Shown piece after piece: positions 9,037-59,166 of a DNA stretch of 64,000 nt; within the stretch, counting starts at the first letter, position 1; the number at the start of each line of letters is the position of its first letter. This DNA is from Eubacteriales bacterium (GTDB lineage: Bacteria; Bacillota; Clostridia; Oscillospirales; CAG-272). Below the pieces are notes generated by a model. The model saw only the letters and a list, made by a program, of their open reading frames with translations, ran no database searches and was not told the origin of the DNA. Position numbers and translations under genes: made by a program. The stretch covers positions 9,839 to 73,838 of the forward strand of contig JAZKZO010000052.1 in NCBI GenBank assembly GCA_045612665.1. Direction: 5' to 3'.

Positions 9037-10014
9037 TTATTTTATGTCTTCAAACACCTGTGCAGGTGCGTCATCAAGGCATTCGGGATGCTTAAAGCAT
9101 GCTCTTATCACCTTGAGTGCCGATGCATAATAGAAGCCGTCGCAAATACGCTCATCAAGATTATAGGTTATCTCGGTAAAGCTATGCTTTGTAACGCTTC
9201 CGTCCTCGTTTACCAAAAGCTCTCTTTGCTTTGAGCCAAAGGATATGAACGCGGGAACTGTACCGAAATCGTAAAGATGATGCACGATAGGCGGAATTCC
9301 GAGCGAGCCCATTGAGGTTATAAAAAGCGATGCGTGGAACGGGCTAAGCCTTGTCAAAAACTTGGGCAAAAGTCCGCAATAGTCAAGAAATCTCAAAAAT
9401 CTGATTGTCCAACGAAGCAAAAGCCCCGGAATAAAGTTAAGCGCCTTTGCGAGCTTATCAAACTTACTGTTTGGCTTTGCGCGATACTCCTCGATTTTGC
9501 CGTTCATAATTCTATAAACGTCATCAGCGGTAGCCGATGGGTCGATTATAACCTTAACGACGGTATCGGGCGATTCAAGAGTCATTTCCTTCTTAACGAC
9601 GAGGGAAATTTCAATTTTCTTTCTTGTATAAATCTTTTGACCGCGAATAAAGCGATTAATAGCCGGTCTTTGAGAAACTGCACGCACGTATGCTGCAAGA
9701 ATCACGTGCATAAGGTTAAAGCCAACAAGTCCCTCCGACTGCTTTTTCTTGATATACTCGTCAATCTTTGGCATACTGATTCTATCAAAAATAAAGTTTT
9801 GAGAGGTGTTTCTCGTTTCCATTATATAAGGGACAAGACGTTGCATAGGAGCAACTCCTCTTACCTTGCGTATCTTATCCTTTTCATAGAGCTTTTTTTC
9901 TTTCTTTTTAAGCTTAAGCTCTTCCTTTTTTTGTTTGTCAAGAGCCTTTTGCTCCTGCCTACTTAAAGGGCGTTGCTCTTCTGTCATTTCGTTCTTGTTT
10001 TCTATCATTTTCAA
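9037..10014 (-). CDS. 2-oxo-acid dehydrogenase E2-like acyltransferase-fold protein, no lipoyl domain
   Basis: FITSMGSLG and C-terminal LDERICDG resemble the E2/CAT catalytic domain. Confidence 0.7.
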   Translation of the reverse strand: MKMIENKNEMTEEQRPLSRQEQKALDKQKKEELKLKKKEKKLYEKDKIRKVRGVAPMQRLVPYIMETRNTSQNFIFDRISMPKIDEYIKKKQSEGLVGFNLMHVILAAYVRAVSQRPAINRFIRGQKIYTRKKIEISLVVKKEMTLESPDTVVKVIIDPSATADDVYRIMNGKIEEYRAKPNSKFDKLAKALNFIPGLLLRWTIRFLRFLDYCGLLPKFLTRLSPFHASLFITSMGSLGIPPIVHHLYDFGTVPAFISFGSKQRELLVNEDGSVTKHSFTEITYNLDERICDGFYYASALKVIRACFKHPECLDDAPAQVFEDIK

Positions 10015-10133
10015 GTCGTCCTTTTTGGATTTTGTTGATAAATCAATTCATATTTTACCACAAACAAGTAAAAAAATAAATACCTTTTTGAAAAAAACTT
10101 CTTTTTTAGAGTCTAGATTTATTTTTCCAAAAG

Positions 10134-10162
10134 TTGATTTTTCATTTATTATGTGATAAAAT
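10134..10162 (+). promoter_or_regulatory. Sigma-A-type promoter of the deo operon
   Basis: TTGATT-N17-TAAAAT with extended TG. Confidence 0.6.
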
Positions 10163-53847: not shown

Positions 53848-55581
53848 TTATTCCTTTGGCTCAGTTGCGTCGCCATAAGCGGTTGTTTTCGCCTCTTGCG
53901 CTGCCACCAAGTTAAGATTTACGCTATCAAAGATTACATCGCCAACGGTTGTTTTGTTAGCGTAATCGCTCTCGGACTGAACGTAAAATACGTTACCGTC
54001 GCTATCAATTATATAAAGCACGAAAATTAGCTCAAGCTTTTCCTTTGCAAGCTCGCTGAAATTGTCAATTGAATAGCTGAATTTGCTATATTCGGTAGTC
54101 GTCATTTCAACTTGAAGGCCAAGATTGCTATTAAGCTTGCCTTCAGAGTTGAGTAGTCCACTTCCTTGTTCAAAGGAGTTTGCGTTTACCGCAATTATAC
54201 CGAATCTAAGCGCATTTTGAGTAGCGTTTAGATAATTTGTATAAGCATCTGAGTCGAAGGTGAATCCACCGTTCAAGCCTGCGCCCGAAAGTGCTATGGA
54301 ATATCCGGATGCGCCAAAAATCGCTTTAGCTACCGTTTCTTCTCCGTCGACGTACGTACAGGTATTATTTGTGCATATTGAGCCACAAATTCCATCCTTA
54401 CCAAAGCCATTCGGGTATTTTATGGTATTTAAAAGCTCGTGATTTGCAAGTCCCTCGGTCAAAATCTTATTACAGGTTAGGCAAAGGTTATTTGTTATAC
54501 AAATAAAATCCTCATTTTCAATGTGATTTTCACCGTAAAACGCCTTACATTTGTTATAGCCCGTGATGATTACGGCAGTATAACCGCTTTGCGCTGTGCC
54601 GGCGTCAATTTCCTCTTGAGTTGCGAATTTTACTCTACCCGTGCTCTTCAAGGTGCTGACAAACGCGCTAGTATCCTCGCCCTCTTTTGCGATTACGTAG
54701 AAGCTTATAGGTCCTGCCGAGGATGCAAACCACGCCTGACTTTTATCACTGACAAAGCTCGCTTCTATCGGAATGTAAATTTCTCTTAAACATTGGTCGC
54801 CATCATTACCAACTATATTGTAACCCAAATCGACAGGTCCGTCACCGATTTTAAACACCTCAATTTTAGTGCCGCGAAAAGCACCGTCATCGAGTTTTAT
54901 AACCGAATTCGGGAGAGCCACAGTACCCGAAAGACCGCTCAAATAGAATGCCGCCCAACCAACCTTTTCAAATCCTTCCGGAAAATCAAAGCTAGTAAGC
55001 GCCGAACACGCCCTGAAAGTTTCTCTTCTGATTTCCTTCAGTTGCGAATTCTCTTCAAGTTCAACGGTAGTCAAGGTGCTGAGTCCGTAAAAAGCACTAT
55101 TACTTATTATCTGAACAGTGTTAGGAATCCACACATACTCAAGAGAGGAATATCCCTTTCCTGACGCAAAAGAGTTATCGGCAATGTATAGTGCGCCTTG
55201 CGGATAGTAAACCTTCTTCATGTTAGAAACATCATCCGAATATGCCAAAAGAGTTTGCGGATAAGTGCCGGTTTTCGTAAAGATTCCGGTTTTAGCATCG
55301 TAGGTGCAAATCTCGGTACGTCTACCATCAAAGATTTCCACATCAGACCAAGCAATCGTTTTAGAAGTGTCAGTATAATCCGCATAAAGTGTAACACGGT
55401 CATAACCCTGATAACCATCCCACGAATTACCCTTTTTAAGATAACCCACGGTTTGAGTTCCGTCGGTTAATGTCAGATCAATATTTATAAAATTCGACAG
55501 ACTATCAGCACTGATCGTGATTGCAAAAATGCACGATATCAAAGTGATAAAGAGTGCGAGCAACAATATTTTCCTTTTCAT
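53848..55581 (-). CDS. Secreted BspA-type leucine-rich repeat protein
   Basis: Signal peptide; IPNTVQIISNSAFY, FPEGFEKVGWAAF, LPNSVIKLDDGAF repeats. Confidence 0.85.
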   Translation of the reverse strand: MKRKILLLALFITLISCIFAITISADSLSNFINIDLTLTDGTQTVGYLKKGNSWDGYQGYDRVTLYADYTDTSKTIAWSDVEIFDGRRTEICTYDAKTGIFTKTGTYPQTLLAYSDDVSNMKKVYYPQGALYIADNSFASGKGYSSLEYVWIPNTVQIISNSAFYGLSTLTTVELEENSQLKEIRRETFRACSALTSFDFPEGFEKVGWAAFYLSGLSGTVALPNSVIKLDDGAFRGTKIEVFKIGDGPVDLGYNIVGNDGDQCLREIYIPIEASFVSDKSQAWFASSAGPISFYVIAKEGEDTSAFVSTLKSTGRVKFATQEEIDAGTAQSGYTAVIITGYNKCKAFYGENHIENEDFICITNNLCLTCNKILTEGLANHELLNTIKYPNGFGKDGICGSICTNNTCTYVDGEETVAKAIFGASGYSIALSGAGLNGGFTFDSDAYTNYLNATQNALRFGIIAVNANSFEQGSGLLNSEGKLNSNLGLQVEMTTTEYSKFSYSIDNFSELAKEKLELIFVLYIIDSDGNVFYVQSESDYANKTTVGDVIFDSVNLNLVAAQEAKTTAYGDATEPKE

Positions 55582-55787: not shown

Positions 55788-56495
55788 TTATTTTTTGCCC
55801 TGTCCGTAATAAGCGTTTGGACCGTGCTTACGGTCGTAATGCTTACGAAGCAAGGTTTCCTGCATTCTCTCGGTTTTGCCGTTTGCATTAAGCATAAGCA
55901 TCTCCGTATTATATGCCATCATAGCAACCTGCTCAAGCACAACAGCAGCCTCAACTGATGCCTTTGCATTATCGCCCCAGGTAAACGGACCATGTGAATG
56001 AACGAGTGCTGCGTGCATTTGAGTTGCGCCGATATCCTTGAGTGCCTCGAGAATTACAGTTCCCGTTTCCTTTTCATACGCACCCTTAATCTCAGCATCG
56101 GTCATCTTGCGTGTGCAAGGAATGGTTGTGCCAAAATAGTCAGCGTGAGTTGTGCCGTACGGAGTGATACCTCTACCTGCCTGCGCGTAGATAACCGCCC
56201 AAGGTGAGTGAGTATGGGTTACACCACCAATTTCAGGATAAGCCTTATAAAGCTCTAGGTGAGTTGCGGTATCAGATGATGGCTTATAGTCGCCCTCGAT
56301 AACGTTTCCATCAAGGTCGAGAACAGGAAGCATACCAGGAGTTAAATCATCATACTCAACGCCCGATGGCTTTATAACGACAAGCCCCTTTTCTCTGTCA
56401 ATTCCACTAACGTTTCCCCAAGTGAATGTGATGAGGTTATATTTTACGAGCATCATATTTGCCTCGTAAACCTCTTTTTTAAGCTGCTCTAGCAT
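55788..56495 (-). CDS. araD: L-ribulose-5-phosphate 4-epimerase
   Basis: TFTWGNVS, IKPSGV, PSSDTATH, HTHS, GTTHADYF, RKHGPNAYYGQ. Confidence 0.93.
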   Translation of the reverse strand: MLEQLKKEVYEANMMLVKYNLITFTWGNVSGIDREKGLVVIKPSGVEYDDLTPGMLPVLDLDGNVIEGDYKPSSDTATHLELYKAYPEIGGVTHTHSPWAVIYAQAGRGITPYGTTHADYFGTTIPCTRKMTDAEIKGAYEKETGTVILEALKDIGATQMHAALVHSHGPFTWGDNAKASVEAAVVLEQVAMMAYNTEMLMLNANGKTERMQETLLRKHYDRKHGPNAYYGQGKK

Positions 56496-56507
56496 TTTTC
56501 TATCTCC

Positions 56508-57101
56508 TTATATCTTTGCTCTTAATTCTACGACCTTACCGATTATTGTAACAGGCAAGCTCGCAATTTCTTCGTTTGAAAAATATCTTGGCTCATAAGC
56601 CGGATTTGTCGGCATAAGTCTAATGCCCTCGGTATATCTTACAACCTTCTTCATCGTCGCCTCATCGCCAACAAGAACAACGGCAATATCACCGTTATCA
56701 ACGCTACTTTGGCAACGAATGATTACAATATCACCGTTCGAAAAGCGCGGCTCCATACTGCGACCCTTAACACGAAGTCCGATAAGCGTTGCGCCCTTGC
56801 CAAGAGATGCATCAACGTCAACGTACTCCTCGACATCCTCAATTGCATCAATAGGAATACCTGCGGCAACGTTACCGCAAACGGGGACCTTGATCATATT
56901 CGTGCTAGCCTCACCGGCAACAAGCTCCCCAACGCCAACACCAAAAAGTCTGGCAAGAGTTGCGACGGTATTCGCATCAGGCGTGCTAACTCCACGCTCA
57001 TACGCGGAATAGGTTTGTCTTCTTATGCCAAGGCAGTCGGCAACCTCGGCTTGAGTGAGCCCTGCCCCCTTACGCGCGGATATCAATCTTTGCTTTAACA
57101 T
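56508..57101 (-). CDS. CI-like repressor (XRE HTH + S24 autopeptidase)
   Basis: LTQAEVA..YSAYERG HTH, VAAG cleavage site, GRSM Ser and ATMKK Lys dyad. Confidence 0.9.
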   Translation of the reverse strand: MLKQRLISARKGAGLTQAEVADCLGIRRQTYSAYERGVSTPDANTVATLARLFGVGVGELVAGEASTNMIKVPVCGNVAAGIPIDAIEDVEEYVDVDASLGKGATLIGLRVKGRSMEPRFSNGDIVIIRCQSSVDNGDIAVVLVGDEATMKKVVRYTEGIRLMPTNPAYEPRYFSNEEIASLPVTIIGKVVELRAKI

Positions 57102-57151
57102 AACAATCTCCTAAAAATAGTTAGAATATATAATATTCATATTACAAAATC

Positions 57152-57279
57152 AGTATAGCAAATATTTTTTGCCTTGTCAAGTGATTTTTCGAAAATAATG
57201 TCATTTATTTTTCACATTTTCCTCTTGACAATGCAAATTTAATTTGCTAAAATGTTGGCGTAAGCAATTTTAATTTGCT
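57152..57279. promoter_or_regulatory. Divergent promoter pair with three operator palindromes
   Basis: Leftward TTGACA-N17-TATACT (57180-57152); rightward TTGACA-N17-TAAAAT (57225-57253); GCAA-N7-TTGC at 57158, 57233, 57264. Confidence 0.8.
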
Positions 57280-57480
57280 TTTGCTTACCTCTTAAACCGA
57301 CGCCTTCCACTCCGTGTCGGTCATTCGCCCCGTAGCAGTTTTCTGTTAAGAGCGTGCGTATCGGCTTTTAGTGCTTTGCCGTTCTCCTACGCAAAATCAG
57401 CAAATTTCTGCGCACATACGCAAAAAAGTGGCAGTATGTGTCGATAAAACGAAATTTAGATTTTTAGGAGGTATAAAATT

Positions 57481-57750
57481 ATGTGTAAAATATGCAATTC
57501 AATTTACGGTCATTTAGATAGCTGTCCCGACCATTCGCCAAGAAGCGACACCTATTGCATTTCATGCGAGTGTGAAATCGAAAATGGTGAGCCAATGGTC
57601 GTTTTTCCAAAGGGAAACGTCTTTTGCAAGGATTGCGTCAGCTGTCTTGACATGCACGATCTATGTCTTTATCTTGACGTTGACAATCCCTTTGACCTTA
57701 TCCAAGAATATGGTATTTGCGAAATCGCAAGGGCAGGTAGATATCAATGA
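57481..57750 (+). CDS. Small Cys-rich, probably zinc-binding phage-type protein
   Basis: AGGAGG RBS; CKIC-x5-H-x3-CP, CISC and CKDC motifs. Confidence 0.75.
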   Translation: MCKICNSIYGHLDSCPDHSPRSDTYCISCECEIENGEPMVVFPKGNVFCKDCVSCLDMHDLCLYLDVDNPFDLIQEYGICEIARAGRYQ

Positions 57751-58130
57751 CAATGAGCGAGTTAAAGCGCCTACACGCATTAAACAAGGAAATAGAGCTT
57801 GAAAAGGAAAGGCTTTATTCCATGCGTTGCATCTCTAACCGTGTAAACATAAACGGCGTTTCATTGCTCAAAAAAGGTGATTTTGCCGAGGACGTGTCTA
57901 TTTTAGAGGATAAAATCAAGGCACATTTAAAGGATTGTCTTGTCCTTTATCGCGAAATTATGGATTTTATAAACTCAATTCCCGACCCCCTTGTCCGCCT
58001 TATTACGTCGCTGAGATACGTAAATGGGCTCGAATGGGAGCAGGTCGCCTTGCATATCGGTGGTGGAAATACCGGGGAGAGTGTGCGTAAAACGTGCGAA
58101 AGATACTTAAAACAGCATATTAACAAATAA
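57747..58130 (+). CDS. RinA/ArpU/DUF1492-like phage late-gene regulator
   Basis: ATGA overlap with the upstream gene; coiled N-half, then LRYVNGLEWEQVALHIGGGNTGESVRK sigma-region-4-like HTH. Confidence 0.7.
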   Translation: MTMSELKRLHALNKEIELEKERLYSMRCISNRVNINGVSLLKKGDFAEDVSILEDKIKAHLKDCLVLYREIMDFINSIPDPLVRLITSLRYVNGLEWEQVALHIGGGNTGESVRKTCERYLKQHINK

Positions 58131-58218
58131 AATTTCTCTTTTACCTTGATTTTATTTAAAATATATGGTAAAATATTTTCGTATATTTATTTTTTATATT
58201 TTAAAAGGAATTTTGAAA

Positions 58219-59166
58219 ATGAGAAAAACCTGTAAGTTTCTTGAAAAGTTCATCTTGGTTATCCTAATTGAGCTTCTATTCGTTGCATTGTTCGGAGTAA
58301 TTAGCTTCTCCTTTATGCACAATGCCGAAACAAACACTCTCGCAATGCCTCACATCGTTACCATCGTGTTCATTCTTTTCATCTTGGGCACTATCGGAAC
58401 GTCCGTTTACATGGCATTCAAGGCGAAGGATATTTGCGTTGTAAGCATAAAGAAAACCGAGCCGTATCTTATGTTCGCATCAACCTTTGCTGCTCTTATG
58501 GCACTTGCAATTTTCGTTTATGAGTCAATCATAAGCGTTGCAAGGGGACAAATGAACGCGTATTTCGTGTTCAGAGCTACCAAATGGGTGCTTTCACTCG
58601 TGCTTGTTGCTTACTTTGTAATTCAAGCACTTCCAAAGAAGTTCGGAAAGCTTCGCGTTCATATTCCGTCGGCTGCTAAAATAGGTGTATCCATTTGCGC
58701 TATTTTGTGGGCGGTGTTCGGTGTTCTTACCGTATATTTCAACGCGCTCCACATGAACGACGTTTCAAAGGTATCACAGCTTCTTGTGTACGCATCAATC
58801 GCCGTATTCTTCGTTTTCGAGGGCGAATTTGACAACGTAAAGCCTGTATATAAGCCTTATATAATCAGCGCTATCACCTGCTCCGCGCTCACGTTCGGAT
58901 TCCCTCTTGGAATTTCAATTTCCAAGATTATAGGAAAGTTTTCACCGTACGGTGCATTCTCTCAGGCAGAGCTTTTGCTCTCGTTTGCAATTGGTCTTTA
59001 TGCCTTTGCAAAGATGCTCGCTATGGTTCGCACAATGAGAATCGTGGTTGACAGCAAAACAAACGACCATCACAAAAAATTCAACAAGCACAAAAAGGCA
59101 GAAGAGCCCGCTGAGGAAATCAAAGCAGAAGAGGTAGTTGAATCTGCCGAGGTTAGCGAAAAATAA
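58219..59166 (+). CDS. Multi-pass membrane protein of unknown function
   Basis: About eight hydrophobic segments and a charged tail; ATG at 58219 after AAAGGA. Confidence 0.75.
   Translation: MRKTCKFLEKFILVILIELLFVALFGVISFSFMHNAETNTLAMPHIVTIVFILFILGTIGTSVYMAFKAKDICVVSIKKTEPYLMFASTFAALMALAIFVYESIISVARGQMNAYFVFRATKWVLSLVLVAYFVIQALPKKFGKLRVHIPSAAKIGVSICAILWAVFGVLTVYFNALHMNDVSKVSQLLVYASIAVFFVFEGEFDNVKPVYKPYIISAITCSALTFGFPLGISISKIIGKFSPYGAFSQAELLLSFAIGLYAFAKMLAMVRTMRIVVDSKTNDHHKKFNKHKKAEEPAEEIKAEEVVESAEVSEK

Follow-up and report, generated by a model that had tools for sequence, protein, structure and literature searches.

Within a 64-kb window of the genome of a Eubacteriales bacterium (contig JAZKZO010000052.1; the window is the whole stretch of DNA analysed, and coordinates without a contig name are positions in it), three genes between positions 56508 and 58130 encode a repressor of the self-cleaving type, a two-zinc protein and a small protein of the phage late-activator type. 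We consider it rather probable that this module is the regulatory half of a split, domesticated prophage, similar to a gene transfer agent (GTA) or to PBSX, and that it acts in trans on a cluster of particle genes located elsewhere in the genome and on gyrB. The anatomy of the module, its conservation, its co-occurrence with the particle cluster and the architecture of the promoters were computed from genome sequences. The first-pass annotation of the window had proposed a repressor-gated cascade acting in trans on an unlinked cluster or on host genes, and this proposal gained support from the cluster, the co-occurrence, the promoter type and a copy of the promoter element at gyrB. Its designation of the module as an "orphan" holds locally, where no phage is present, and fails at the level of the genome, as an unlinked particle cluster exists.

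The module and an unlinked particle cluster

The module consists of the repressor gene (56508..57101, minus strand, 197 amino acids), the gene of the cysteine-rich two-zinc protein (57481..57750, plus strand, 89 amino acids) and the activator gene (57747..58130, plus strand, 127 amino acids). These open reading frames (ORFs) were verified on the sequence at the coordinates annotated before. The latter two genes overlap by 4 bases (ATGA), the stop codon of the first overlapping the start codon of the second. As had been described, araD (Aldolase_II, 2.8e-48) flanks the module on one side and the gene of a membrane protein without a family on the other, and no phage structural gene lies near the module within the window.

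Pfam searches of the window's own genome (G000; 1.85 Mb, 97.55% complete) with TerL_ATPase, Terminase_6N, Phage_capsid and Phage_portal were negative because these were the wrong families; the cluster is of the Terminase_3 and SPP1_portal type. A tblastn search with 222 proteins from phage and prophage loci hit contig C57, where a prophage terL matched with 37% identity over 372 residues, together with a portal protein. The hit belongs to a 12-gene cluster (C57:2743-10332, minus strand) that runs from terS to holin-like genes, and a terminase/capsid cluster without regulators elsewhere in the genome, as the first-pass annotation had suggested might exist, is thereby at hand. Specifically, terS (C57:10332-10003, 109 amino acids) is followed on the same strand by terL (Terminase_3 and Terminase_3C), the portal gene (SPP1_portal, 363 bits), a scaffold gene (DUF4355), the major head protein gene (phrog_544; capsid gene at L131:6018-7064), a gp6-like connector gene, two genes of small proteins, the gene of a Dit-like protein (SPP1_Dit), that of a 325-residue protein with a weak Sipho_Gp37 match and, at the end, two genes of small membrane proteins that resemble a holin pair and match no family. 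A small terminase without a DNA-recognition domain is a mark of GTAs; the terS product here matches only positions 64-131 of 141 of Terminase_2 (E 7e-4, below the cut-off).

The cluster is bordered by a secreted-protein gene on one side and by HAD hydrolase and mnmE genes on the other. Within it, neither a regulator nor an integrase or replication gene was found, and no tail tube, tape measure or endolysin gene was seen there. As expected of a GTA, head and packaging genes are kept at a fixed site across species without integrase, replication genes or regulators of their own. A capsid-forming phage-inducible chromosomal island, which would have an integrase, regulators and a primase/replication module next to its capsid genes, was considered and rejected in view of these flanks and of the site being fixed in five species. 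At E up to 1e-10 the capsid family has 1270 members, almost all of them from Clostridia metagenome bins; such clusters may therefore be far commoner than the 23 close activator homologues obtained by a word-based search.

The comparison set contained 24 relatives of the same genus and 16 genomes of other genera in the order. The activator is present in five of the former (G022, G024, G011, G008 and G023) and in none of the latter, which gives, with G000, six module-bearing genomes in the genus and 19 module-free relatives. Within the genus, the particle cluster occurs solely in module-bearing genomes (5 of 5 relatives with the module vs. 0 of 19 without it). The terL orthologues of G024, G011, G008 and G023 are 72–75% identical to that of G000, that of G022 is limited to residues 1-77, and none was found in the 19 module-free relatives. 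The order of the cluster beside the HAD hydrolase and mnmE genes is the same in G024, G008 and G023, and in G011 as far as the contig extends. The closest relative, G022, has a clean deletion of about 6 kb (locus L143, G022:C1:104000-121000, at about 9266-10150) that fuses terL to the gene of the 325-residue protein. It spans residue 83 of TerL to residue 93 of the 325-residue protein, residue 82 being joined to residue 94. The genes for portal, capsid and connector are lost with it, and the regulatory module is intact, as is terS with its promoter element. Between species, the Dit-like and 325-residue proteins are 27–37% identical and the capsid 69–79%, and the fast evolution of the former two would be compatible with contact to a changing cell surface.

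GyrB identities (91–98% vs. 84–87%) place the module-bearing genomes of the genus in one clade. The co-occurrence statistics within the genus rest on such close, non-independent kin, and the association of module and cluster there may therefore stem from one event.

A late-type promoter element shared by terS and gyrB

Upstream of terS, all six module-bearing genomes have an identical TTGTCCGTTTTGTCCG followed, after 8–9 bases, by an extended -10 box (TGnTATGAT or TATGCT), and the flanking DNA has diverged. No sigma-A -35 box is present at the right distance. At the -35 position the element has TTGTCCGTT as a direct repeat, the two copies being 9 bp apart. Each of the six genomes contains the exact 15-mer TGTCCGTTTTGTCCG at two sites, and 35 other genomes lack it; their one-mismatch hits were as frequent as those of the reversed control and lay at unrelated loci. 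A position weight matrix (PWM) of 40 bases found two sites in G000 (64.7 and 56.1 bits) and no other of at least 14.

The second copy of the element is located 100–170 bases upstream of gyrB in all six genomes, the gyrB of G008 being cut by a contig end. The gene is a true gyrB (TIGR01059, 912.5 bits vs. a cut-off of 882.4). In most module-free relatives a remB-like gene abuts gyrB and no such promoter is found. A divergent GyrB-like gene is present on C57 (23069-25186); it is 29% identical to gyrB, scores 446 bits with TIGR01059, far below the cut-off, and cannot be assigned clearly to gyrB or to parE.

The same architecture is found in phages. In nine of nine phage or prophage loci, two similar 6–7-mers 9 bp apart and an extended -10 box are located within about 40 bases after the stop codon of the activator homologue. 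One prophage has TTGTCCG twice, two loci have TTGTTAC twice and one has TGTTCG twice; the others have TGTCCC/TGTCCG variants. The residue that follows the conserved R/K in the recognition helix is K at all ten loci with TCC repeats and M at all three with GTTA or GTTC, in a small sample of loci that are not independent.

A genome of another genus of the same family, the GC-richer G060, has the same parts at other sites. An HTH_3-S24 gene is divergent from the genes of a 95-residue zinc protein, in which the eight ligands recur, and of a 135-residue activator, between a pyridoxal/hydroxymethylpyrimidine (HMP) kinase-like gene, a deaminase gene and other housekeeping genes. The terS, terL and portal genes lie on another contig next to a different host gene, and the TerL and portal proteins are 62% and 59% identical to those of G000. 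The variant element of this genome, TTGTCCGTTTTTTCCG, has exact copies at two places only, one upstream of terS and one upstream of remB-gyrB, and three hits with one mismatch are elsewhere. The variant base thus changes jointly at both sites of a genome, as one shared reader predicts.

A 7-base tandem repeat upstream of terS in G000, similar in look to the published Ltr repeats, was also considered as the activator site and rejected, since it is found at 35 sites on nine contigs and is missing at terS in four of five other species. The repeat, [CT]CGCA[CT]T in 2 to 7 copies (e.g. C57:10421-10473), occurs on C6, C15, C16, C17, C32, C40, C42, C57 and C67, with many arrays intergenic or at contig ends, and is a dispersed repeat that is not specific to the late promoter.

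The activator and its phage homologues

Late activators of the Ltr group are described as binding to short direct repeats at the promoter of terS and as being encoded just upstream of terS, with the phage's cI repressor controlling them; they turn on the packaging and lysis genes (PMC3753634). The activator of the module has an N-terminal helical hairpin and a C-terminal helix-turn-helix (HTH) part that resembles sigma region 4, as is typical of these small proteins. It matches phrog_36 ("transcriptional regulator", 1.8e-10). With Pfam DUF1492 (LtrB) it gave an E value of 0.084 and 13.5 bits, below the gathering cut-off of 21.5, and "DUF1492-like" therefore denotes resemblance and not membership. 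The earlier label of a RinA/DUF1492-like protein is kept in this sense. A profile of 13 close homologues matched 2700 proteins at E up to 0.001 in a library of 1.84 billion, mostly about 130 residues long and aligned over the full length. Distant relatives have weak Pfam matches to DUF1492, DUF722 and Sigma70_r4, and one of 39 tested passes the DUF1492 cut-off.

In the predicted structure (predicted local distance difference test score, pLDDT, 86.1), a long helical hairpin precedes a three-helix bundle. The 52 residues at the C-terminus can be superposed on region 4, the -35-binding part, of Mycobacterium tuberculosis SigD at 2.0 Å with a probability of 0.99, and further matches of the bundle are region 4 of SigL and SigR, which are domains of extracytoplasmic function (ECF) sigma factors. 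The fold search gave no match to the whole protein.

Activator homologues with 31–50% identity lie after replication genes (helicase, primase or RusA) and before terS-terL-portal in three of four viral contigs scanned with PHROGs, and gene order indicates a like placement in prophage-like loci of the same bacterial family. The activator of the module does not hold this position: its downstream neighbour is the membrane gene, which has its own promoter, and not terS. It is the sole member of its family found in G000. Taken with the promoter architecture, these features suggest that the activator binds the TTGTCCGTT repeats and activates the terS promoter, and it probably pairs through its helical hairpin.

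The repressor, its operators and the two-zinc protein

The repressor has an XRE-type HTH domain (residues 8-60; HTH_3, 1.6e-13) and an S24 domain (residues 73-191; Peptidase_S24, 3.7e-29, 101.2 bits vs. a Pfam cut-off of 23.3). In the alignment with LexA of Thermotoga maritima (3k2z), the Ala80-Gly81 cleavage site, Ser115 (in GRSM) and Lys152 are retained, in agreement with the earlier description of a CI-like repressor with an Ala-Gly site and a Ser/Lys dyad. By its domain and residues it is of the S24 self-cleaving type represented by LexA, lambda CI and UmuD, and recA is present in the genome (535.8 bits); self-cleavage on RecA filaments after DNA damage would be expected of such a protein. 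PADLOC gave only generic HTH matches for the repressor and none for the other two proteins, and the module was rejected as a known defence system.

Two divergent promoters, each with 11 of 12 matches to the consensus and both conserved in a five-genome alignment, bear out the earlier claim that the promoters are intact. The leftward promoter of the repressor gene (57152..57180, minus strand) has TTGACA, a 17-base spacer and TATACT with a TG extension, and the rightward promoter of the two-gene unit (57225..57253, plus strand) has TTGACA, a 17-base spacer and TAAAAT with a TG extension. Three predicted operators share the form GCAA-N7-TTGC, with their spacing kept in five of five aligned genomes. 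O1 (57158..57172; PWM score 25.0) is the palindrome GCAAA-N5-TTTGC within the spacer of the leftward promoter, O2 (57233..57247; 26.5) lies within that of the rightward promoter, and O3 (57264..57278; 27.7) is directly downstream of the rightward -10 box. A PWM built from 15 operator copies was run over the 1.85 Mb of G000. Beyond the three local sites the next best scored 16.9 and is inside a coding region, as are most of the lesser sites, and no operator was found upstream of recA or other genes. The repressor therefore appears to act locally, with no visible regulon elsewhere.

The rightward transcript would begin with a leader of about 220 bases (57254..57480, plus strand, by alignment) that contains the hairpin CCGACGC...GTGTCGG. 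In G023 the hairpin carries compensatory changes, G008 and G024 lack it, and an Rfam search of 56400-58400 at E up to 1 gave zero matches, the hairpin included.

The two-zinc protein has no family in Pfam, PHROGs, NCBIfam or PADLOC. Eight residues (Cys2, Cys5, His11, Cys15, Cys26, Cys29, Cys49 and Cys52) are invariant in nine of nine homologues and are predicted to form two zinc ligand sets, Cys2-Cys5-His11-Cys15 and Cys26-Cys29-Cys49-Cys52. A fold search with the structure model (pLDDT 84.5) returned no match at E 0.001 or better, with weak RING, LIM and PHD matches. The protein may be a co-activator, a brake or an anti-repressor.

Conservation of the module at one chromosomal site

The repressor orthologues, found in the same five relatives as the activator, are 85–96% identical. 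All five genomes have the order araD, repressor gene, the divergent zinc-protein, activator and membrane genes, and two ABC transporter genes, at a locus near the S10 ribosomal operon. The same arrangement was found in two further species of a public genome collection, giving eight species in total, in an Oscillospiraceae-like clade. The three operator palindromes accompany the genes in all seven species besides that of the window. The araD and membrane genes are visibly adjacent in 11 of 16 loci of module-free relatives, none of which has any of the three module genes, and the module is therefore a 1.7-kb insertion. The membrane gene was considered as a member of the unit and rejected: it is present in 21 of the 24 genus relatives, it has a conserved promoter of its own, and a terminator follows the activator gene in four of eight species.

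Synonymous sites are saturated between most species, and the closest pair has a dS of about 1. For that pair, the ratios of nonsynonymous to synonymous substitution rates (dN/dS) of the repressor, the two-zinc protein and the activator are 0.02, 0.20 and 0.12, compared with 0.01 for araD and 0.11 for the membrane gene, and all copies of the module ORFs are open in seven to eight species. These values indicate that the module is under purifying selection and is not decaying, in line with the earlier impression of intact ORFs. The tests of synteny and dN/dS named in the first-pass annotation thus show a module kept at one site outside prophages in eight species, and it is found again in a second genus. 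With the module intact in these species and an unlinked cluster in the genome, the outcomes on synteny, decay and cluster under which that annotation had said the idea would fall did not arise.

Contigs of four bovine-gut RNA libraries of one study, 95–99% identical to the window, cover araD with the repressor gene and the zinc-protein with the activator gene; they indicate presence in the libraries only, as contigs reveal neither levels nor starts nor strand, and DNA may have been carried over. No such contig covers 57152-57272, which is not evidence of repression or induction.

A 577-residue secreted protein with BspA-type leucine-rich repeats (LRR_5, 2.2e-18) is encoded between the S10 operon and araD (53848-55581), and a related 534-residue secreted protein is encoded next to the particle cluster on C57.

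Proposed circuit and alternative explanations

In the proposed circuit, the repressor bound to its three operators would shut off the rightward promoter and limit its own synthesis. Its self-cleavage, which we infer to take place on RecA filaments after DNA damage, would let the rightward promoter fire and yield the two-zinc protein and the activator. The region-4-like domain of the activator would then read the two TTGTCCGTT repeats that replace the -35 box before the extended -10 box, and would recruit RNA polymerase to the terS cluster on the other contig and to gyrB. Putative particles formed in this way might carry DNA, kill or do nothing. That a phage-derived late activator has been kept by its host and drives a gyrase gene together with the particle cluster in two genera is a bolder claim, which we put forward only tentatively.

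Several points weigh against the circuit. The case for DNA-damage induction comes from the S24 motifs, the link from activator to element comes from sequence comparison, and the two-zinc protein has no assigned place. Exact 7-mers were flagged by script in three of the nine phage loci, those of the other six being imperfect and read by eye. Since no tail tube, tape measure or endolysin accompanies the head genes, a working particle is putative. The co-occurrence in one genus may be a single ancestral acquisition, because the genomes are not independent, and in G022 the module is intact despite the loss of most of the cluster, so that it may have another role or be in the course of being lost. 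Finally, gyrB is essential, and strict dependence on a repressed activator would therefore be lethal; its promoter needs basal activity or another reader. The extended -10 box may give gyrB such expression without the activator.

HdiR of lactococci and streptococci is a substitute for LexA. The repressor could likewise be the LexA replacement of this clade, with the host SOS response as its main job and the divergent genes as SOS genes unrelated to the cluster. The distribution of LexA speaks for this. G000 has no canonical LexA: TIGR00498 matches only the S24 part of the repressor (about 87 bits, 86.7–87.6, vs. a cut-off of 110.95; profile positions 76-197 only), whose N-terminus is HTH_3 without a winged helix, as is not the case in a canonical LexA, and the other S24 hit in the genome is a signal peptidase only. 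A full-length LexA-type match is present in all 19 module-free genomes of the genus (17 over the cut-off, two at 101.8 and 104.4 bits) and in none of the six with the module. None of the three genes of the relatives' operon of lexA, a small ORF and a Y-family polymerase was found in G000. In four relatives (G012, G016, G004 and G020; loci L085-L088), the lexA gene that heads this operon encodes 199 residues with a winged helix and S24 domain, followed by an ORF of 87–95 residues and the polymerase gene (IMS). However, the operator occurs only at the repressor's own locus and neither at recA nor at other genes, G060 bears the module plus a canonical LexA (163.9 bits), and the complementary pattern comes from one clade and may be a single event. 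Because of the operator scan and the LexA of G060, we regard this explanation as unlikely.

A little less credible still is that the element is the site of a host factor that controls gyrB, for example in response to supercoiling, that the cluster borrowed it, and that the activator has another target. The element does precede a true gyrB in all six genomes and remB-gyrB in G060, and it would be unusual for a phage activator under repression to control an essential gene. On the other hand, the gyrB genes of module-free relatives lack the element, of which no exact copy exists in the 35 other genomes, the same architecture follows the activator homologues in all nine phage loci, and the repeat tracks the recognition helix.

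The weakest explanation, that module and cluster are inert leftovers of one decaying prophage that share descent and have no present function, would fit their confinement to one clade of the genus, the loss of most of the cluster in G022 and the genes not seen (tail tube, tape measure, endolysin, integrase and replication genes), but we find it improbable given that the three plus twelve ORFs are intact across species with dS above 1, that the operators and the 15–16-base promoter element are fully conserved amid diverged flanks, that the same parts recur in a second genus at other chromosomal sites, and that RNA-library contigs, with possible DNA carry-over, cover both transcription units.

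Relation to known systems

If the bolder claim on gyrase is true, a self-cleaving repressor and particle production would become linked to the supply of gyrase and so to chromosome supercoiling, and a core housekeeping gene would be wired into a domesticated viral circuit. The compact candidate circuit of a cleavable repressor, a sigma-4-like activator and a 16-base promoter element suitable for genome searches makes testable the trigger of such elements, the membership of scattered genes and the reason for the tie to gyrase. An orphan-looking cassette in a 64-kb window was here matched to unlinked targets through phyletic co-occurrence and the promoter type of its phage homologues. No earlier description of such an arrangement was found in the open-access literature.

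PBSX of Bacillus subtilis is a defective, domesticated prophage in which the XRE-type repressor Xre gates Xpf, which turns on a late operon that starts with terminase genes. Xpf has been described as sigma-like (PMC4243946). The chain of an XRE-type repressor, a small sigma-like factor and a terminase-led late operon is shared with the present system, whose terL is of the Terminase_3 type. The two differ in that the regulators are here unlinked from the late operon, the repressor has an S24 domain, the activator carries only a region-4-like domain behind a helical hairpin and gyrB shares the late promoter; in addition, no tail sheath, tube or tape measure was seen in the G000 cluster. Compared with the Ltr activators (RinA, ArpU, LtrA/Sigma70_r4, LtrB/DUF1492 and LtrC), the activator is a similarly small protein whose homologues hold the position before terS, but it is encoded outside any phage and without a downstream late operon, its presumed sites being in trans.

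In the GTA of Caulobacter, RogA represses gafYZ, and GafY is reported to activate the main cluster as well as some 18 accessory promoters in which the -35 is degenerate (PMC11150451). A repressor acting on a small activator operon, and activators that fire a main cluster and dispersed promoters, are common to both systems as far as that report describes them. The protein families of the two systems are unrelated, and S24 cleavage is not part of the scheme reported for Caulobacter; GafY binds far upstream and needs integration host factor (IHF), whereas the repeats here overlap the -35 position.

A similar gene set is that of FpGTA of Faecalibacterium, described as a ten-ORF operon of terS (with no obvious DNA-binding domain), terL, portal, scaffold, capsid and hypothetical genes, with more genes elsewhere in the genome and particles that are probably podovirus-like (PMC12946183, Nat Commun 2026). 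By that description FpGTA I resembles the G000 cluster in gene set and in residing in a Gram-positive gut anaerobe of the same broad group. The recent report also states that host DNA is commonly packaged in a GTA-like manner in Ruminococcaceae and Oscillospiraceae of the gut (PMC12946183). The word "regulator" is absent from its main text and no control module is given there, whereas the G000 cluster has a candidate one, which, if the bolder claim holds, would be the first to be known for the newly recognised GTA-like elements in Clostridia of the gut. Relative to all of these systems, what differs is the combination of an S24 repressor, an Ltr-type activator that would act in trans on an unlinked cluster, a gene set without a tail tube, and the same promoter on gyrB.

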